From: Candidatus Nanohaloarchaea archaeon
GTDB lineage: Archaea > Nanohalarchaeota > Nanosalinia > Nanosalinales > Nanosalinaceae
Reading direction: 5' to 3'
Assembly (NCBI GenBank): GCA_042218325.1
Contig: JBDGRE010000005.1
Span: forward strand, 25,428-89,427
Length of the DNA: 64,000 bases
This document shows, in pieces, positions 5,315-48,736 of the stretch; positions within the stretch are counted from its first letter, which is position 1, and each line of letters begins with the position of its first letter. The position numbers and the translations under genes were made by a program. The notes below the pieces were generated by a model. That model ran no database searches. It worked only from the letters and a program-made list of their open reading frames with translations, and was not told where the DNA came from.

Positions 5315-6004
5315 TCAACGATGCGGATCGTAACGCTCCGCAGCACCCTGCACAACTGCACCGTACTCTTTCTCGCCGAAGTACATGGCCAGAGGTACGC
5401 CGGACTGTGAGCTGTGACCGTAGTCGAGCAGCCGGGACAGGTCCTGTATGATCGCTGCACGTGAACTGACCGGTGAGTCCGTTCTCAACATCACGGGTAG
5501 AAAATCGTCCACGGGCTGCGAGGTCTCGCGGTCCATCGACAGACCGAAGTGATCGTAGCAGGATATCTTGAACCCGAAAGGAGTAGGATCGCCGTCCTTG
5601 CTGTTATGGCTGAAATCGGTCCACTCCAGGTCGAAGACCGGGTCGCGGTGATTCTGGTAGAACTGGAACGTGTGGATATCTTCGTCCATGCCTTCTCTTA
5701 TCGACCAGGGTTCGAAGCTCTCGGAGTCCCCGACCCATATCTCGTCCTCTACCTGTGGAGGGTACTGCCTGTCTATGACATCGAAAACCGGCCTGTAATC
5801 GACGTTCGTCCGGTGCCAGACCTCTGCCCCTCCCCTGCCGAGGAACACCTCGACACCAACAGGGTCGTTCAGTCCGTCGGAAGGCGCCTCGAGCCGGACG
5901 TACTCGTATGGCTCGCTTTCCGGGTCGCCGGGAACTCTCTCGTACTCTGCCACTGTTTCAAAGAACTCGTCTACGTCCTCCGACAGGTGCCAGTCACCCT
6001 CCAT
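5315..6004 (-). CDS. hypothetical acidic protein
   Basis: Start MEGDW about 30 bp downstream of TATATTTAA on the minus strand. Confidence 0.6.
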   Translation of the reverse strand: MEGDWHLSEDVDEFFETVAEYERVPGDPESEPYEYVRLEAPSDGLNDPVGVEVFLGRGGAEVWHRTNVDYRPVFDVIDRQYPPQVEDEIWVGDSESFEPWSIREGMDEDIHTFQFYQNHRDPVFDLEWTDFSHNSKDGDPTPFGFKISCYDHFGLSMDRETSQPVDDFLPVMLRTDSPVSSRAAIIQDLSRLLDYGHSSQSGVPLAMYFGEKEYGAVVQGAAERYDPHR

Positions 6005-6092
6005 CGTTTCAATACGGGCCGGAGAAAAGTTAAATATAACCGTTGAGTGGCACGCCGATATACTGACGTACGAGGATTTCTGGGAGATAGAG

Positions 6093-9536: not shown

Positions 9537-12482
9537 CTAACATTTGGAATAACCGCAGTCGGGGCACTTCTTGCAGCCTTCCTGGAGGACGAGCATGCCG
9601 CCGCAGTCGGGGCATTCGGGGTTGGCGCCGTCCTGAATGATGTCGGCGGCGTCAGCGCTTTTCTCGGCGGGTGTCTTGCCAGCGTTCTCGGTCTCGGTGC
9701 TCCCGTCCTCGTAGTCCTGGACGGTCTGCTGGGCCGTGTTGCCGCCGGAGAGGTGGCGTTTCATCGCCTCCGCTATCGCGTCCGGAACAGAGTGGATTTG
9801 TGTTCCCTGGTCCCAGGCTATCTGCGGTGAGCGGATGTCGTCGAGCTGGTTGACGACCTCCTCCGCCGTGGCGCCCGAGCGTAGTGCGAGCGAGATGGAG
9901 CGGCCGAGGGCCTGTGTGAACGACTCGGTGTAGCCGCCGCTCTTGCCGAGGTTGGCGAATACCTCGAAGACGCCCTGGTCGTCCTCGTTGACCGTGACGA
10001 ACAGGTCGCCGTACGCGGTCTCTATCTCCTGCGTGGTGCCGGAGATCATCTTCGGTCGTTCACGCGCTGCGCCGTTCTCGTCCATCTTGGAGTGGTCGAC
10101 CGTGCCGGAGGGCTCCGCGTCCGCCGTTTCAGGGCTCGAGGCCTCGACTCCTTCCTGCGAGATCTCCTGGTCGAGGTCTTCTTCCTGGACTGCGAGGTCG
10201 GTCTGTTCCGCGACCTCCTGGAACTCGTTGGACTTGAGCAGCTCTTCCGCACCTCCAAACTCGTCGACGAGGGCCGACAGCATGTCGACCTTGTCCATGT
10301 CCGTCTGGACGTTGTCGGCGTTCTGCTTCATGACCTCCGTCTCCCGCGTGCCGTCGCGGTAGACTGTCATGCCCTTGATGCCCTTGTCGTACGCCCGCAT
10401 GTACGCCTCGCGGACGTCCTCCTTGGAAGCGTCGTTCGGGAAGTTGCAGGTCTTGGAGATGCCGGAGTGGTTGTGCTTCTGGAACGCGGCCTGGATGTCG
10501 ACGTGCTCTTCAGGCTTGACCCTGTCCGCGGTCATGAACAGTTCCTTGACCGCGGGTGGGAGCACTTCGTCTTCGAGGGAGTCGACGCCGTCCCACTCGT
10601 TGTTGCGCATCTTCTCCTCGACCTCTTCACGCACCTTTTCTACGTCGATGTCGTTGGCCTCGAGGGCCTTGATGAAGTAGTCGTCGAACTCGACGAGCAT
10701 GTCCTCGCCCTGGATGTCCTTCGCGACGTTCTTGAAGTAGGCGACCTGGAAGATCGGCTCGCAGCCTCCAGAGGTGTTGCCTATCATCGATGTGGTTCCA
10801 GTCGGCGCGATGGTGACCGTGTTGTGGTTGCGGAGCTTGAGGCCGTCCTCGAACTCCTCAGGGTCGTAGCCCCCGCTCATCTTGTTGAACCACTCAGGGT
10901 ACTCCGTGGGTTCAGCCCACTTCGACTTCTCCCATTCGTCGAACTCGCCGCGTACGTCCGCGAGCCGGTGGCTTTCCTCGACCGAGAACTTGGTGATGAG
11001 TCGCTGTATCTCCTTTGCGGCTGCGACTGACTCGTCCGAGCCGTATCGGATGCCGAGCTGAATCAGCATCTGCGCGAAGCCCATGAGCCCGAGGCCTATC
11101 TTCCGCATCTCGCTGACCTTTTCCTCTATCTGCTCCAGCGGGAAGTCGGACATGGTGACGACGTTGTCGAGGAAACGGGTGCCTATCTTGGCGATGCGCT
11201 CCAGCTCCTCGGTGTCGAGAGCTTCCTGGATGTACTCCTGCATCGCGATGTCCAGCTCCTCCTCGTTCTCGTAGCTGATCTCGTGCTCCTCGCACCACTC
11301 GTGGAAGTTCAGGCCGAGGCCGTCGCCCTGGTCCTCCACCAGCAGCGACAGGTTGATGTGGCCGAGGTTGCAGGCCTCGTAGTTCTCGAGCGGCTGCTCG
11401 GCGCACGGGTTGGTGGCCTCCATCTTGTGCTCCGGGTGCTCCTCGACGTCGAACGAGTGCTGGTCGTTCGCCTCGTCGTAGACGTAGAAGCCTGGTTCTC
11501 CGTTCCTCCAGGCCCCGTCGACGAGTGTCTCCCAGATGAAACGGGCTGGAAGCGTCATGGTCTCTCCCGGTTCGAGGTCGATGTCGAACTCGTCCACCTC
11601 GTCGCCGAAGGTGTGGGCGAAGTCACGCCAGAAGTTGTCGTCCTTGCCCTGGTCGCTGCCCGCGGCCTCCGGGTACCAGTCCTCGTCGCGGTTGTAGAAC
11701 TCCGCGGTCTTCCGGGTAACGGTGTGAGGTTCGTCGTTGCGCGGGTTGATGAGGGTGTAATCCTCGTCGTTCTTGACCGCCTTCATGAAGTCGTGGGTCA
11801 GTCCGACCGAGATGTTGAAGTTGCTCAGGTTTCCTTCCTTCCTCTTCGATACTATGAAGCGGAGGATGTCCGGGTGGTCGACGCGCATGATTCCCATCTG
11901 CGCTCCCCTGCGTTTTCCGCCCTGCTTTATCGTCCCGCACATGGTGTCGAACACCTGCTGGAACGTTAATGGGCCCGAGGCGATTCCGCCGGTGCTTGAT
12001 ACCGGGTCGCCCTTCGGCCGCATCAGGTGGAATGGGTAGCCGACGCCGCCTCCTGTCTGGAATATCTTCGCCGCGTCATGGACCTTGGAGAAAATCGAGT
12101 CCATGTCGTCCTCGGGATGGACAACAAAGCAGGCGCTCAGCTGCTGTAATTCCGCTCCTGCGTTCATCAGCGTGGGAGAGTTCGGCATGAACTTGAGGTT
12201 GGTCATAAGGTCGTAGAACTGCTTCCATGACTCCTCGAAGCTGTAGTCGTCGTACTTCTTGTCCGGCTGCGCGACGTTCTTCGCGACGCGCTCGAACATC
12301 TCCTCCGGTGTCTCCGTTACGTTGCCCTCCTCATCCTTGAGGAGGTACCGCGCCGGCAGTATCCTTTCGTACGCGTTCTCCGTCAGTCTTTCCTCTACCG
12401 TGTCTCCGGTCACCCGCTTGACAGGTAGCTGGTAGTCAGATTTTTCGTTTATCTCGCCTGTTTCGGTAACAGTGTCAGTCAT
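9537..12482 (-). CDS. nrdJ: class II (adenosylcobalamin-dependent) ribonucleotide reductase
   Basis: [35 protein letters not shown]-terminal TSCPD-like domain and [14 protein letters not shown]. Confidence 0.97.
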
Positions 12483-12620
12483 TGTTGTTGGATCCCCCTT
12501 TGATGAGCATGAGTGAAGTGAAAGCTGTGTGAAGTGAACCTGTGAGTATGAGCTGTAAGCATCATTTCTTTTCGGCCTCCGAAGACCTCGGTCTTCTTTG
12601 TGTCCGAAAATCTACGATTT

Positions 12621-13061
12621 TCATCCATCCTGTAGGGCCTCGACTTCTTCCTGGAACGATTCCGCGTTTTCGAAGCTGTCGTACACCGATGCGAACCTGA
12701 TGTAGGCGACCTCGTCCCGCTTCTTCAGCGCCTCCTTGACGAACTCTCCTATCTTTTCCGCCGGGATTTCCTTGCGGTCGACCACGTTCTGCCGGACCTC
12801 TTCGACCGCCTCGTCGATACCCTGTTCATCGAGCTGGGTGTTCTCCGCGGCCTTCTCGATGCCGGACCGTATCTTCTCCTCGCGGAAGTCCTCCCGGGCA
12901 CCGTTTTGCTTCACGACCTTGACGTCGTACTTCTCCACGGTCTCGTAGGTCGTGAAACGCCGGTCGCATGAGGCGCACTCCCTGCGTCTCCTTACGCGTT
13001 CCTTCGATTCCCTGGTGTCGACCACGTTGGTCGAGCATGCTTCGCAGTACGGGCATTTCAT
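12621..13061 (-). CDS. nrdR: transcriptional repressor NrdR
   Basis: MKCPYC..VVDTR..RRRREC..C.RRFTTYE, ATP-cone, VAYIRFASVY. Confidence 0.97.
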   Translation of the reverse strand: MKCPYCEACSTNVVDTRESKERVRRRRECASCDRRFTTYETVEKYDVKVVKQNGAREDFREEKIRSGIEKAAENTQLDEQGIDEAVEEVRQNVVDRKEIPAEKIGEFVKEALKKRDEVAYIRFASVYDSFENAESFQEEVEALQDG

Positions 13062-41402: not shown

Positions 41403-42026
41403 CTACATCATCCACTTCTCTTCCCATTCACGGATGCGCTCACGCCAATCATCACCGTCATCTTCAGCCTCCACGCCCCCCTCAAGATACGGCCTGTCGC
41501 GCAGCCAGTAACCTACCGGGACTCCGGCGGCCATACCGAAAAGGTGGGCCTCGTAAGCGGTTCCGGTAGCAGCCGGGATACCGGCGAAGTTGATGAAGAT
41601 GTAGCTCAGCAGCACGAACCACATAGGTGCAGGAACTCCGAGCGCCAGTCCTACCTTCCGCGGCCGGTAGACCGCCAGCGCGGAAAGCACTCCCATCGCT
41701 CCGCCCGAGGCCCCGATTATGGAACTGGTGGGGTAGAACACGAAAGCGGAGAGGTTCGCCAGCAACGCCGCGGCGAAAAAGGTGGCGAGGAACGTCCTTC
41801 CCAAGGTCAGCCGCTCGTATATCGAGCCGAAGAGTCCGATGAAGAACGCGTTGTTCAAAAGGTGCTGGAGGCTGCTGTGACCCACGATCGAGGTGAAGAA
41901 CTTGTAAAACGGTGATGAGGCGGCGTTGAAGCCTGGATCGAAGCCGGTGAACGCCTGCACGGCATAGACCACCCCAAGGAGGAACGTCAGCTGCAGTGCC
42001 ACGAAGTCGAAGTTTTTCTCGTTCAT
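41403..42026 (-). CDS. rhomboid intramembrane serine protease
   Basis: H...HLLNN, GASG, AHLFG. Confidence 0.92.
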   Translation of the reverse strand: MNEKNFDFVALQLTFLLGVVYAVQAFTGFDPGFNAASSPFYKFFTSIVGHSSLQHLLNNAFFIGLFGSIYERLTLGRTFLATFFAAALLANLSAFVFYPTSSIIGASGGAMGVLSALAVYRPRKVGLALGVPAPMWFVLLSYIFINFAGIPAATGTAYEAHLFGMAAGVPVGYWLRDRPYLEGGVEAEDDGDDWRERIREWEEKWMM

Positions 42027-43618
42027 GAGACCTGCTCAAGTATCTCCACGGCGTCTTCCTGGCCGATGGACATGATGAGCCGGGAGAGTCTCGGGCCTTC
42101 CTCACGGGAAAGCAACACGCGGTAGGCGGTCGTGAAGAACTCTCCGGTGTCAAGCGCGCTCTCGTCCCGAACGTCAAATATATCCCCGTCGAGTTCCTCC
42201 TGGTCTTCGTACTCTTTCTCCCGCAGCTTTTCTGCAAGCAGCTGCACCGCCTCCTGCTGGTCCCCGTCGAGGTCGTCGATTATCTCTGCGGGCACCTCGA
42301 AGTTGATGGTGTACCTGTACTCTCCCGGCGCGTGGTCCCGGGCCCAGTTCTTCGCCTTTTCCAGCCGCTCCAGCACCTGTTCCTTCCCGACTTCGTCGAT
42401 ATCTTCCGGGACGTGGCCAGTGCGCTTCAGCGACTCGATGGCCTTTGTTTCCCATTCCTCCTCTGGCACGGTCTGCGCGATGAAGGAGGCGTGCTGGAAA
42501 GGGACGCGGACAGGTTTTTCGTCCGGTATCTCGACCACCGCCAGCTCGTAAACTCTTTCGCGGTGTTCCTGCTTCTTCTCGTTGTCGAGGCCTTCCCCGA
42601 AGTAGTCCTGCTCGATTCGGTCGAACCGGTCGTACCGCTGGAAGATGTCCTCGTCGAAAGGTATCTCGAACGCCTTGTTTGGCTTGGTGCCTGAGAACAG
42701 GAACCGTATCATCTCCGGCGTGTAGACCTGCTTCAGGTCGGTCAGCGTGAACGCGTCCTCGCCCGAGCTGCCGGAGATCTTCGCACCATCCTTTGTCACG
42801 AACTCGTACATCTGGTGGACCGGCGGCTCCTTGTCGAAGATCTTTTCCGCGAGCTCGTTGCCGGTGTCCCGGGAACCGCCCGCGGCGGAGTGTTCTTTTC
42901 CTGCCGGTTCAAAATCAACACCTTCGTACTTCCACCGCATCGGCCAGTCGATCCTCCAGGGCGGCTTCACGGAGTCGGTCTCCGCAAAGTCTATCGAGCG
43001 AGTTTCGTCGCATTCCTCGCAGTAGTACTCGACGCGGGTTTCACCGTCGTAATCCTCTACCTGTGTGAAGTCTCGGCCGCATTCGTTGCAGTAAACCCGC
43101 AGCGGGAAGTAGGGCTCCTTCAGCGGCTCCTTGCGGTATTTATCAAGTATTTGTTTGACCTTCTCCCGGTTCTGCATCGCAGTCTTTATCCAGTCAGTGT
43201 ACTCGCAGTCCCGGAACATCTCGGACTGGCGGATGAACTCGATATCCATGTGCATGTCATCCAGCTCCTCTTCCAGCCGGGCCTCGAAGTGCCGTGCGTA
43301 CGAGTCGTGGCAGCCTTCCGGGTCGCGCACCTCTGAGAGCGGGAGGCCGATGTACTGCTCCCACTCGTCTGGAACGTTCTCGGGCACCTTCCTGAACCGG
43401 TCGTAGTCGTCCCACGAGTAGATGAAACGTACGTCCTCGCCGCGGTGTTTCAACGACTTCACGACGAAGTCGACGGTTATTATCTCGCGGAAGTTTCCTG
43501 CGTGTACCAGGCCCGACGGCGATATCCCCGCGGCGCAGACGTACTCTTCCTGATCTGGGAACTTCTGTGTCACGCCGAAGGCCAGTTGATCGCTCCAGAA
43601 GAGTGGTTGCTCGCTCAC
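42023..43618 (-). CDS. lysS: class I lysyl-tRNA synthetase
   Basis: GISPSG.VHAGNFRE, DDYDRFRKVP, WRIDWPMRW, EPAGKEH, KISGSSG, GPRL; GTG start at 43618 with GAGGTG SD. Confidence 0.96.
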   Translation of the reverse strand: MSEQPLFWSDQLAFGVTQKFPDQEEYVCAAGISPSGLVHAGNFREIITVDFVVKSLKHRGEDVRFIYSWDDYDRFRKVPENVPDEWEQYIGLPLSEVRDPEGCHDSYARHFEARLEEELDDMHMDIEFIRQSEMFRDCEYTDWIKTAMQNREKVKQILDKYRKEPLKEPYFPLRVYCNECGRDFTQVEDYDGETRVEYYCEECDETRSIDFAETDSVKPPWRIDWPMRWKYEGVDFEPAGKEHSAAGGSRDTGNELAEKIFDKEPPVHQMYEFVTKDGAKISGSSGEDAFTLTDLKQVYTPEMIRFLFSGTKPNKAFEIPFDEDIFQRYDRFDRIEQDYFGEGLDNEKKQEHRERVYELAVVEIPDEKPVRVPFQHASFIAQTVPEEEWETKAIESLKRTGHVPEDIDEVGKEQVLERLEKAKNWARDHAPGEYRYTINFEVPAEIIDDLDGDQQEAVQLLAEKLREKEYEDQEELDGDIFDVRDESALDTGEFFTTAYRVLLSREEGPRLSRLIMSIGQEDAVEILEQVS

Positions 43619-43689
43619 CGAGCACCACCTCTTCTGCCGCAAGAAAGTTCACGGAACTTTCGGCTCCAAAATAACGGTTGATTGGTCAT
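43615..43689 (-). CDS. uORF2 of lysS (MTNQPLFWSRKFRELSCGRRGGAR)
   Basis: Begins with a diverged copy of the lysS N-terminus; its TGA overlaps the lysS GTG. Confidence 0.55.
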   Translation of the reverse strand: MTNQPLFWSRKFRELSCGRRGGAR

Positions 43690-43769
43690 CGAGTTATCAC
43701 CGTTATTTTGTTCGCAGAAGATTCCTGCGTGCCAGAAAATCTTCGAGTCCAGAAGACAGGCTGTTCCAT
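43686..43769 (-). CDS. uORF1 of lysS (MEQPVFWTRRFSGTQESSANKITVITR)
   Basis: ATG about 25 bp after TTTAAAAA; diverged lysS N-terminus; its TGA overlaps the uORF2 ATG. Confidence 0.55.
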   Translation of the reverse strand: MEQPVFWTRRFSGTQESSANKITVITR

Positions 43770-43822
43770 GAAGAAGTGGTTACGAACTGAGTTTTTAAAG
43801 CTCCAGTGCCCGCAAGTGATAC

Positions 43823-45010
43823 ATGGTTGAGGTCTCACCCCGTCTGGTTTTCCTCATCGTGTTCGTCTCGGGCCTCGCGGCGTTCCTCTACTGGGACCGT
43901 GACAATATCGAGCGCCACTTCATACTGTTTTACCGGAGGACCGAGCGGGGTATCGACCTGATAGACCGTATCGCGAAACGTTTCCCCCGGTTCTGGAACT
44001 ACTACGGGTGGCTCGGCGTCGCAACCGGTCTCGCCTCCATGGTGATATCTTTCTACCTGATGGCGCAGGTCTACGGCCAGATGCTTGTCTCCCGCTCTGT
44101 AGAAAATGGGCCCTCGCTGGTCCTTCCAGGCCTGGTGTCACAGAACCAGTTCCAGGCCGGCGTCTCGTTCGTCCCCATCGAGTTCTGGGTCATCGGTGTC
44201 GGGATCATAATGGTGGTACACGAGTTCAGCCACGGCATAGTCGCCCGAACCGAGGGCTTCAAAATCAACTCGGTCGGCTGGATAGTCATGGGTATATTCC
44301 CCGGCGCGTTCGTCGAGCCGGAGGGTGAGCGCATGCTTCCAGCTGAAGGAGAGCAACCGGGGACCGGCTCCGAGGGAGGCATGTGGGGCCTCGGCGACTG
44401 GAAGTCCAGGCTGAAAGTGCTCGGCGCAGGAAGCCTCGCGAACTACATCACCGCGGCAGTGTTTTTCATGGCCGCCGTCGGTGTCGCGGGCGCGATAACG
44501 CAGCCTTCCCAGGTCTTCTACGTCGCGGATGAAGGCTTCCCGGCGGCGGAGGCCGGGATGACCAACGGCACCCTCCACCAGATCAACGGCAAGGATATAG
44601 AAGGCGTCGGCGATGTACAGAACATCTCGGAGACCATCCAGGTCGGGGATCACGTGGCGATCTGGACCTCGGAGGGCAACTTCACTGTTACCGCAGTGGA
44701 AAAGAAAGGATTCGACACGGGCTACATCGGTATCCGCGTCGGCCAGCAACGGGTCATAAAGGACAGCTACAGCGACTACAGCGGGGGGCTGCAGTGGTTC
44801 GTCTCCATGCTGCAGACCATCGCGTTCCTGAACTTCGTCATAGGCCTGTTCAACATGCTTCCGCTGAAGCCGCTTGACGGCGGCCTGATGGCGGACACAC
44901 TGCTGGGTGAGTACTACCCGGACAAGGTGAAGTACCTCGACCGTTTCTCCCTGTTCGGCTGGGCGCTGATACTCTCCGGCATCCTGCTCGGAGTAATCGT
45001 CGGCCTGTAG
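43823..45010 (+). CDS. site-2 protease (M50) with PDZ domain
   Basis: HEFSHG, GAFVEP, FNMLPLKPLDGG. Confidence 0.93.
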   Translation: MVEVSPRLVFLIVFVSGLAAFLYWDRDNIERHFILFYRRTERGIDLIDRIAKRFPRFWNYYGWLGVATGLASMVISFYLMAQVYGQMLVSRSVENGPSLVLPGLVSQNQFQAGVSFVPIEFWVIGVGIIMVVHEFSHGIVARTEGFKINSVGWIVMGIFPGAFVEPEGERMLPAEGEQPGTGSEGGMWGLGDWKSRLKVLGAGSLANYITAAVFFMAAVGVAGAITQPSQVFYVADEGFPAAEAGMTNGTLHQINGKDIEGVGDVQNISETIQVGDHVAIWTSEGNFTVTAVEKKGFDTGYIGIRVGQQRVIKDSYSDYSGGLQWFVSMLQTIAFLNFVIGLFNMLPLKPLDGGLMADTLLGEYYPDKVKYLDRFSLFGWALILSGILLGVIVGL

Positions 45011-48590: not shown

Positions 48591-48682
48591 AGTGCGGCCA
48601 CCGGGATTTGAACTCGAAAACAGGTTTTCTGCGATCAAATGCCGGTTCATCACTTGAAAAGTGCGGCCACCGGGATTTGAAC
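48591..48682 (+). mobile_element. twin-hairpin micro-insertion duplicating the tRNA-Glu 3' end
   Basis: 23-bp perfect repeat 48591-48613/48660-48682; C-GAAAAC-AG-GTTTTC; inverted copy TCAAATGCCGGT. Confidence 0.75.
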
Positions 48683-48736
48683 CCGGGTCTTTGCCTCGAG
48701 AGGGCAAAATGATTGGCCGGACTACACCATGGCCGC
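48662..48736 (-). tRNA. tRNA-Glu(CTC)
   Basis: GCGGCCA/TGGCCGC acceptor; TTGCC-CTCTCGA-GGCAA; CCGGG-TTCAAAT-CCCGG. Confidence 0.95.

Follow-up and report, generated by a model that had tools for sequence, protein, structure and literature searches.

Short open reading frames (ORFs) ahead of a gene are familiar from leader-peptide translation attenuation of the ermC type, and dispersed palindromic repeats, some of them inside genes, from the Rickettsia palindromic elements (RPE). Small dispersed palindromic repeats and miniature transposable elements with inverted repeats (MITEs) such as ERIC/RU and REP have been described in prokaryotes, some with ORFs or inside genes (PMC2759123, PMC3184786, PMC3733652), and leaderless short ORFs acting as the first cistron and controlling downstream genes have been described in mycobacteria (bioRxiv 10.1101/834739). 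Termination-reinitiation at ATGA overlaps with intragenic Shine–Dalgarno (SD) motifs has been shown in Haloferax volcanii, where, in a group rich in leaderless mRNAs, SD motifs are reported to be used for reinitiation and not for de novo initiation (Huber et al. 2019, PMC6728339). Translational coupling of this kind, at overlaps such as ATGA and TGATG, occurs in archaea and bacteria alike. Here, we compare these systems with the start of lysS, the gene for class I lysyl-tRNA synthetase (LysRS), in a 64,000-nt stretch of DNA from a Candidatus Nanohaloarchaea archaeon (hereafter the window, C31:25428-89427 of a genome of 1.07 Mb in 35 contigs, 96% complete). On balance we favour the reading that two leader cassettes stand between an ancestral leaderless start and the lysS gene body, that a termination-reinitiation relay bridges them, and that they are kin to an element dispersed through the phylum. 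Genomes compared carry G labels, with G000 being the window genome, and genera carry g labels.

All features of the lysS locus lie on the minus strand. The gene itself (42023..43618, 531 aa, PF01921 with E 2e-117) begins with GTG as VSEQPLFWSDQ..., and its product shows 65–77% identity to the LysRS of 22 genomes of the same family, with all alignments running from residues 1–4. Upstream of the gene body are two tandem cassettes of 80 and 71 nt, measured start to start. A TATA-like box (TTTAAAAA, 43792..43799), the putative promoter of a leaderless mRNA, begins 30 nt 5' of ATG 43769, which opens short ORF 1 (43686..43769, 27 aa plus stop, MEQPVFWTRRFSGTQESSANKITVITR); this ORF starts with a seven-codon copy (43749-43769, MEQPVFW) of the LysRS N-terminus. 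Within unit 1, hairpin A (43717..43744) is of the CGAA type and pairs GAAGATT with AATCTTC around a 14-nt loop, and hairpin B (43667..43710) holds ATG 43689 in its loop. The 5' arm of hairpin B (CAAAATAACGGT, 43699-43710), which carries the SD word GGTGA (43697-43701), pairs with the 3' arm (ACCGTTATTTTG, 43667-43678), corresponding to codons 4–8 of short ORF 2. The stop of short ORF 1 (TGA 43688-43686) overlaps the start of short ORF 2 (43615..43689, 24 aa plus stop, MTNQPLFWSRKFRELSCGRRGGAR, beginning MTNQPLFW), whose own TGA (43617-43615) overlaps GTG 43618 of lysS. In unit 2, hairpin A (43643..43661), again of the CGAA type, pairs GAAAGTTC with GAACTTTC around a CGT loop, and hairpin B (43596..43636) presents the start GTG 43618 in a GUGAG loop. 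Here the 5' arm (43619-43636) includes the SD word GAGGTG (43626-43631), the 3' arm (43596-43613) corresponds to lysS codons 3–8, and CAGAAGAG..GCTCG pairs with CGAGC..CTCTTCTG. Each upstream N-terminal copy is thus followed by a small hairpin and then by a stretch antisense to codons 3–8 of the next copy. The initial annotation of this sequence had listed these features, with upstream ORFs of 27 and 24 aa whose TGA overlaps the next start (ATGA at 43689, GTGA at 43618), and all of them are present on the minus strand where it had placed them. A longest-ORF rule selects the wrong start for lysS, as the open frame can be extended to 539 aa from TTG 43642 within unit 2.

We analysed 11 lysS units, ten from genomes and one from a metagenome contig. 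The ATG frame was open to the next start in all of them, each of the other two frames being open in 1/11. Start-to-start periods of 71, 74, 77, 80, 83 and 125 nt were found, six lengths which are all 2 mod 3, and at least five length changes occurred among the units, every one a multiple of three. The short-ORF stop overlapped the next start in 11/11 units, and an SD word lay within 18 nt of the next start, inside the upstream ORF, in 10/11. In G004 a base has been lost in the N-terminal copy and the short ORF still stops on ATGA. This comparison supports selection for short ORFs that remain open and terminate on the next start, and bears out across 11 units and six lengths what the initial annotation had claimed for two, that displaced starts give short ORFs ending on the next start.

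The initiation signals of the genome have a sharp geometry. TATA-like hexamers 5' of the first ATG of 1039 long ORFs were found 15, 36, 36 and 14 times at −31 to −28, compared with a background of 0–9, while SD-like words peaked genome-wide at −16 to −9 (the 3' end of the 16S rRNA is GGATCACCTCC). ATG 43769, with its box at −30, falls within the TATA peak. The internal starts ATG 43689 and GTG 43618 have SD words at −12 and −13/−14, within the SD peak, and neither has a TATA-like hexamer at −31..−27. This geometry fits a leaderless mRNA that would begin at 43769. Wherever a zero-unit genome has a recognisable box, this is followed 27–31 nt downstream by the lysS ATG, and in unit-bearing genomes the ATG of the short ORF occupies this position; the congener G001 has the same promoter sequence with the lysS ATG directly after it. 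Alternatively, each unit might bring its own promoter, so that lysS mRNA would begin at 43689 or 43618 and the short ORFs would be relics. The antisense arms are indeed A-rich (CAAAATAA) and lie about 20 nt 5' of the next start. However, the missing hexamers at both internal starts, given so narrow a genome-wide peak, and the retention of the frame (11/11), the overlapping stop (11/11) and the SD word (10/11), which relics would not retain, make this very improbable.

Across the 11 units the displaced N-terminal copy keeps 47/55 residues of QPLFW, and the differences between the first and second copies are concentrated in third codon positions (31/55, or 31/44 variable), compared with 12/55 first and 1/55 second positions. 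The displaced copy is nevertheless less constrained than the real N-terminus, having lost Trp in 3/11 units (CGG, AGG, GGG) and Phe in 2/11. Matched codons of this kind could suggest ribosome hopping from the Trp codon of the upstream copy to that of the next, in the style of T4 gene 60, where a hairpin after the take-off site and an SD word before the landing site act as signals. The matched TTC TGG codons, the hairpin right behind them, the SD-like word 5' of the landing site and the conserved first-copy peptide all recall that case. The replacement of TGG in three first copies counts against hopping, as does the retention by the second copy of a start codon and of the overlapping short-ORF stop, neither of which would be needed, and we regard it as extremely unlikely.

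The leader is also strongly structured. The 196-nt leader folds at −76.8 kcal/mol, compared with −53.7 ± 4.2 in 200 shuffles (z −5.5), none of which was as good. Pairing was counted on alignment A2, because in A1, made with MAFFT, the first G024 copy is out of place. In A2, 87.1% of the cells of the two helices were paired as against 37–55% with slid partners, double-sided changes occurred in nine pairs (21 cells), and the covariation score was reached by 0/500 shuffles. Helix 1 (hairpin A) had 95.8% of cells paired and a compensatory change in 4/7 pairs, and RNAalifold recovered both helices on its own. In an alignment-free comparison, cognate duplexes between an antisense stretch and its start averaged −20.7 kcal/mol compared with −15.1 for non-cognate ones (permutation p ~1e-4). 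Unit 2 folds at −41.6 kcal/mol, and its cognate duplex (−31.5 kcal/mol) was the best in its row and column; several G-U pairs occur on the sense strand of the unit hairpins. Hairpin B is predicted to hide the SD word, the start codon and the opening codons of the following ORF, and the cognate pairing together with the covariation argues that this hiding hairpin is maintained. The start-hiding hairpins proposed in the initial annotation from one genome are thus backed by covariation in the homologous units of relatives. A search of Rfam with window positions 43300-44000 gave best E-values of 2 and 5.1, both far below gathering scores. Two further candidate functions were tried for the leader and ruled out, namely a Lys-sensing leader peptide (Lys makes up 16/299 residues of the 11 short ORFs, and 2/11 have no Lys at all) and a switch in which the first N-terminal copy competes for the antisense arm (cognate −11.0 versus non-cognate −11.9 kcal/mol, p 0.83).

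Whether the units form a fixed leader can be read from relatives. Of the 50 family genomes, 42 yielded a LysRS, and the lysS 5' region was read in all 42 and in seven genomes of two other families. Units were present in 9/42 (the window genome, G024, G004, G020, G015, G018, G007, G023 and G057) and in 0/7 genomes of the other families; the window genome alone has two units, the other eight unit-bearing genomes having one each. Presence varied within seven genera (g1 1/2, g9 1/2, g18 1/2, g20 1/4, g15 1/2, g7 2/3, g2 1/6), which argues that, compared with a leaderless ancestral lysS, the units were inserted, or the zero-unit alleles arose by deletion, and that the units do not represent a fixed leader. 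The promoter and gene of G018 align with those of G054, from the same genus, with a clean 74-nt indel between them. In G018 the first N-terminal copy matches the G054 N-terminus at 22/24 nt, versus 17/24, in our own reading of the sequences. The insertion proposed in the initial annotation is therefore supported by leaderless zero-unit relatives and by this indel, and the zero-, one- and two-unit alleles that it suggested looking for were all found, with no invariant presence among relatives.

Pattern scans extended this picture little. A scan of metagenomes returned 19 loci, of which two were lysS leaders, identical to each other, adding one further unit, and a scan of a genome collection returned 21 loci, comprising four lysS leaders already known and 17 unrelated genes, mostly streptococcal. 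In 12 further family genomes unrelated short ORFs stop within 8 nt of the lysS start, and some of these overlaps are expected by chance because ATGA always yields TGA in the +1 frame. Identity matrices of units versus lysS body (44–56 nt) were too noisy to separate vertical from horizontal descent, and sorting the 24-nt N-terminal copies by likeness was uninformative on descent. Two relatives carry variants of the lysS start. The LysRS of G005 (L011, C2) begins MSEQPSNQPLFW, with four extra residues, and its gene start matches the second N-terminal copy of the window at 21/22 nt, which looks like an in-frame fusion left by the loss of a unit. In G024 (L003:1397-1450, C15) an extra 51-nt palindrome with two hairpins lies inside the lysS short ORF, with the frame kept (42 aa); blastn found no second copy of it in the G024 genome.

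From this arrangement we infer the transcription start, translation of the short ORFs, reinitiation, and a way in which the cassettes arise. Each cassette consists of a GAA...TTC hairpin, an SD-bearing antisense stretch, a new start and a fresh LysRS copy of about eight codons. Ribosomes would load at the 5'-terminal AUG (43769) and translate short ORF 1, and translation through cassette 1 would unwind its hairpin B, to be followed by termination and by reinitiation at ATG 43689. Translation of short ORF 2 would in turn unwind the hairpin B of cassette 2 and allow SD-assisted reinitiation at GTG 43618, leading into lysS. With the relay run twice in series, the essential lysS would stay expressed despite the insertions, and the cassettes would be relatives of the two-hairpin mini-ORF element dispersed in the phylum.

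The initial annotation had regarded the arrangement as a matter of lysS, a view that was not borne out, as lysS appears to be one case of a dispersed family of hairpin/mini-ORF elements. A covariance model of the lysS units (R1), whose training units score 60–96 bits, had matches beyond lysS at 27–33 bits (E 9e-6 to 4.5e-4 per genome). These were at rfcS in G047 (PF08542/PF00004) and at multi-hairpin mini-ORF elements in G008 and in the window genome (C12). The generic element is about 60 nt long and comprises an ATG, a hairpin GAAAATC/GATTTTC, a linker CTGGACTCGCA, a second hairpin GAAAAC.CC/GG.GTTTTC and GA(G/A)TGA, with GAGGTG in the loop and 3' arm of the second hairpin. A model of this generic form (R2), built on five copies from the window genome, was searched in 70 genomes of the phylum and gave 510 matches in 51/70 genomes at E≤0.01, and 134 matches in 34/70 genomes at E≤1e-9, with 0–14 of these per genome.

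The window genome had 24 R2 matches at E≤0.1, of which 22 were inspected after two reverse-strand duplicates were dropped. Nine of these have an ATG mini-ORF with a stop no more than 7 nt from where a downstream frame of at least 60 aa starts, two more have the same layout with shorter downstream frames, four lie in or beside tRNA genes, and the rest are partial or unclear. Forty generic copies from 34 other genomes, drawn from the top of the match list and hence not a random sample, all had an ATG and a mini-ORF of 14–36 aa. Their ATG frame was free of stops over 14 codons in 40/40, compared with 11/40 and 24/40 for the other frames. The mini-ORF stopped within 8 nt of the start of the open downstream frame in 32/40, the other eight stopping about 10 nt earlier, at the TGA in GGTGA, and for many element-preceded genes the element provides a GTG start. 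The mini-ORF peptide, read in either of two registers (MSENRRFS... and MTKIADFL...), follows the hairpin covariation, suggesting that the conserved entity is an RNA, or single-stranded DNA, and not the peptide.

A second predicted relay is found within the window itself (12479-12634). A generic element on the minus strand (12564-12634, R2 29.1 bits) opens a 49-aa mini-ORF at ATG 12628, a start that overlaps the stop codon of the nrdR-like gene before it. At its other end the mini-ORF overlaps, by an ATGA, the start (12482) of a class II ribonucleotide reductase of 981 aa (PF02867, PF00317).

Searches for a described counterpart of the generic element were negative. Eight generic element loci had no Rfam match at E≤1, a pattern search of viral contigs and a blastn search of phage records gave no match, and the literature searched held no description of such elements in Nanohaloarchaeota. 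Four unassigned, highly expressed 'hairpin-hinge-hairpin-tail' non-coding RNAs are reported from a cultured nanohaloarchaeon, in work that also covers co-cultures and RNA-seq (PMC10266531), and might or might not correspond to the elements described here. Two scans of the window genome by layout also passed the elements by. When an N-terminal copy with an NTGA overlap was sought, lysS only stood out and the other 11 rows were chance-like, as generic elements lack N-terminal copies and were missed; when a TATA box at −32..−27 was demanded, seven unrelated cases were returned and none of the elements.

Orthologous sites with and without an element were compared at two ribosomal-protein genes. 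Of six genomes read at the rpL4 start, one carries the element, and the empty sites read ATGACAGA. The rpL3/rpL4 junction of 4/5 relatives consists of the stop, a 7–16-nt spacer and ATGACAGAxxTACC, with G001 differing at its rpL4 start (ATGGAGCTACC). The window genome instead reads ATGA, 56 nt of element plus TGA, and CAGACC; the old ATG now opens a mini-ORF and the element end gives a GTG start, leaving the protein unchanged. At the rpS19 start the element is present in 2/6 genomes (the window genome and G001) and absent in four. The element at rpL4 ends in CGAAAA...TTTTCG, with TGA or ATGA/GTGA on both sides, while other sites have duplications of 9–27 nt.

These sites bear on a reading in which the units and the dispersed elements are not tolerated insertions but a cis-regulatory leader motif of the host, serving translation and transcription genes by way of an SD-hiding hairpin that protein, salt, temperature or ribosome traffic would open or close. 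It would share the relay mechanism and differ on why the elements exist. Judged by their N-termini, we take the genes downstream of the 40 sampled copies to be mostly those of ribosomal proteins, aIF2-gamma, RNA polymerase B, Spt4, ProRS and SerRS, and those behind copies in the window genome to be, presumably, rpS4e, rpS4, rpS19, rpL4 and rpL1, a bias towards translation and transcription that such a motif would explain. Hairpins which covary while the mini-ORF peptide shifts along in two frames, and occurrence across three families of the phylum, also speak for it. On the other side, orthologous sites are filled or empty in close relatives (rpL4 1/6, rpS19 2/6, lysS 9/42), strong R2 matches number 1, 8 and 5 among three members of a single genus and are absent from both g16 genomes, the lysS short ORFs have no Lys-codon enrichment (16/299 residues), the first N-terminal copy has no alternative pairing with the antisense arm, and there is no Rfam match. 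We therefore consider a shared regulatory motif rather unlikely, and continue to prefer insertions bridged by a relay.

The rfcS matches carry N-terminal copies like those of lysS. Units were found at rfcS in three of six genomes read, G047 (L101, C57), G020 (L166) and G007 (L165), with none in G023, G018 or the window genome. Their short ORFs of 20, 23 and 9 aa stop in ATGA, and the N-terminal copies are identical at 16/18, 16/16 and 9/9 nt, respectively, so that the rfcS copy looks like a recent local duplication and not an import. The initial annotation had suggested that incoming elements carry N-termini from other lysS alleles, which these near-identical copies do not support. Its overall interpretation is supported in part, as regards insertion, open short ORFs and maintained hairpins; the restriction to lysS is not borne out, and the origin from other alleles is no more than a possibility.

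Duplicated gene ends also occur at tRNA genes. The window genome contains 32 exact direct repeats of at least 14 nt spaced 35–160 nt apart. Five of these flank assembly gaps: five 100-N runs (C2:74469, C7:5955, C13:15910, C14:5700, C14:16878) have identical 55-nt copies on both sides and are scaffolding artefacts. Of the 27 non-gap repeats, 11 represent a tRNA gene end, 5' or 3', that has been duplicated; most of these have a GAAA..TTTC hairpin between the copies, and six have an exact antisense piece of 7–9 nt. Two of these cases lie in the window, both on the minus strand. About 65 nt downstream of tRNA-Ala(GGC) (51974-52048) are a GAAAATC/GATTTTC hairpin (51912-51928), an 8-nt antisense piece and, at 51885-51908, an exact repeat of the last 24 nt of the gene. 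Behind tRNA-Glu(CTC) (48661-48736) come a near-antisense stretch and a short GAAAAC/TTTTC hairpin, and its last 21 nt then recur exactly at 48593-48613. As the same layout is found at tRNA genes, the copy / antisense / copy arrangement appears not to be special to translation and looks like a footprint of how the elements arise. A broader possibility, which we put forward tentatively and hold to be doubtful, is a self-compensating insertion family in Nanohaloarchaeota which lands on first codons and tRNA gene ends by target-templated insertion, brings a hairpin, an SD word and a start, and leaves a copy / antisense / copy of its target. Rescue would come from a relay mini-ORF or, at tRNA genes, from RNA processing, and the record of the family would consist of lysS and rfcS together with dozens of ribosomal-protein genes and one in three tRNA genes.

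Insertion sequences of the IS200/IS605 family and their palindrome-associated miniature derivatives have two subterminal hairpins and insert by a short conserved word, and the transposase families PF01797 (Y1 TnpA) and PF07282 were searched in the 50 family genomes. PF07282 was above the cut-off in 11/50 and absent from the window genome. The only intact Y1 transposase gene detected among the 50 genomes is that of G051 (L124, C11:13800-18800), where it is followed by a broken TnpB-like frame. Hairpins of the form GAAATC/GATTTC are placed about 60 nt 5' of tnpA and about 130 nt 3' of the TnpB-like frame, and R2 matches the left one at 28.6 bits. We regard this insertion sequence with element-like hairpins as a lead, not a link.

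Several observations weigh against insertions bridged by a relay and against the kinship of the lysS units with the dispersed family. Counts such as 11/11 are inflated by kinship, the units deriving from few events and not representing 11 independent trials. The displaced N-terminal copy is far from neutral and seems more conserved than a free short ORF should be, which the relay leaves unexplained; filled and empty alleles may alternate over time within a lineage, giving the first copy periods as the working N-terminus, homologous recombination may exchange alleles, or RNA-level excision may remove the unit. BLAST found the lysS-type unit only at lysS leaders in the 50 family genomes and the window genome (E<1e-3), with one further match of 25 nt in G024 (E 0.002), and R2 had no match to the lysS leader at E≤0.1. 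Because neither connects the two, the proposed link from lysS to the dispersed family draws on the R1 cross-matches and shared motifs. Y1 TnpA was detected in 2/50 family genomes and not in the window genome, and no transposase from the two families searched could be tied to the elements. Moreover, several tRNA introns of the window genome end with GAAA..TTTC hairpins like those of the elements, and the only tRNA-Gly(GCC)-like gene found (C16: ~5890-6040, minus strand) has a 59-nt two-hairpin insert in its D-loop, which suggests that some members of the element family may be removed at the RNA level. This insert is flanked by a 9-nt direct repeat, and its 3' arm copies the 5' part of the tRNA, giving a copy / hairpin / antisense / copy order. 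ARAGORN called 31 tRNA genes in the genome, 21 of them with introns of 12–139 nt; an intact form of the tRNA-Gly(GCC)-like gene was not called, and no other tRNA-Gly with a GCC anticodon is among the 31.

If the lysS units were likewise removed from RNA in the manner of introns, the mature lysS mRNA would be leaderless and its N-terminus would come partly from the first copy. This would account for the amino-acid constraint on that copy, and it would agree with introns in 21/31 tRNA genes, several ending in element-like GAAA..TTTC hairpins, and with the D-loop insert, which has the same layout. Archaeal tRNA and mRNA introns are cut at bulge-helix-bulge motifs (two 3-nt bulges with a 4-bp helix between them, at the exon-intron borders). 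A scan for these gave two period-matching matches among the 11 units, which carry no weight, as the setting recovered 0/6 control tRNA introns at the called junction (two length-matched motifs lay elsewhere). Splicing has no need of a 2 mod 3 frame, an overlapping stop, an SD word (10/11) or an intact second start with a conserved N-terminus, and the invariant Trp codon is gone in 3/11 first copies. Excision of the lysS units hence appears improbable, and a relay through the two short ORFs accounts better for the translation features that these units retain.

The lysS case would be one in which an essential gene takes repeated insertions just behind its start and yet stays expressed, as comparison among relatives supports, with the displaced start turned into a relay ORF whose stop falls on the new start. 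The main addition made here is that lysS is, by the sequence comparisons above, one visible case of an abundant element family. The structured element has no Rfam entry and stands upstream of what is apparently much of the translation machinery in a poorly known phylum of very small archaea, where it may act as a portable translation adaptor of a new kind or else as a shared regulator. For annotation, the GTG and ATG starts supplied by the element matter, as a longest-ORF rule misplaces the lysS start at TTG 43642. The locus also offers a testable case of reinitiation on leaderless archaeal mRNAs.

Set beside archaeal introns, the elements share the hairpin modules that end tRNA introns of the window genome, and one insert lies in a tRNA D-loop; the lysS units differ in conserving translation features. 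With IS200/IS605 they have in common two hairpins and insertion beside a short word (ATGA at the left end, GTGA/ATGA at the right), and an intact insertion sequence of that family in G051 has GAAATC/GATTTC hairpins at both ends. In contrast, the Y1 transposase is confined to 2/50 family genomes, the window genome not among them, and long end-duplications are not a known feature of IS200/IS605. As in the mycobacterial leaderless ORFs and in ermC attenuation, a 5'-terminal AUG and a short ORF precede a structured ribosome-binding site, whereas the lysS leader has no cognate Lys-codon run and no competing helix and is an indel polymorphism within a repeat family. The coupled ORF pairs of Haloferax volcanii, as reported, resemble the predicted lysS relay in having co-directional ORFs, ATGA/GTGA overlaps and an SD motif inside the upstream ORF in a leaderless-rich group. 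Here, in contrast, the upstream ORFs are insert-made fillers of 14–49 aa, two of them in series at lysS, with the SD word and start held in a covarying hairpin. Like ERIC/RU, REP and RPE as described, the elements are short, hairpin-forming and multi-copy, vary in copy number, show filled and empty orthologous sites and are tolerated in transcribed or coding DNA. Unlike those repeats, they sit on start codons with an ATG, an SD word and a terminal (A/G)TGA of their own, and at lysS, rfcS and tRNA genes they add a duplicated gene end and an antisense piece.

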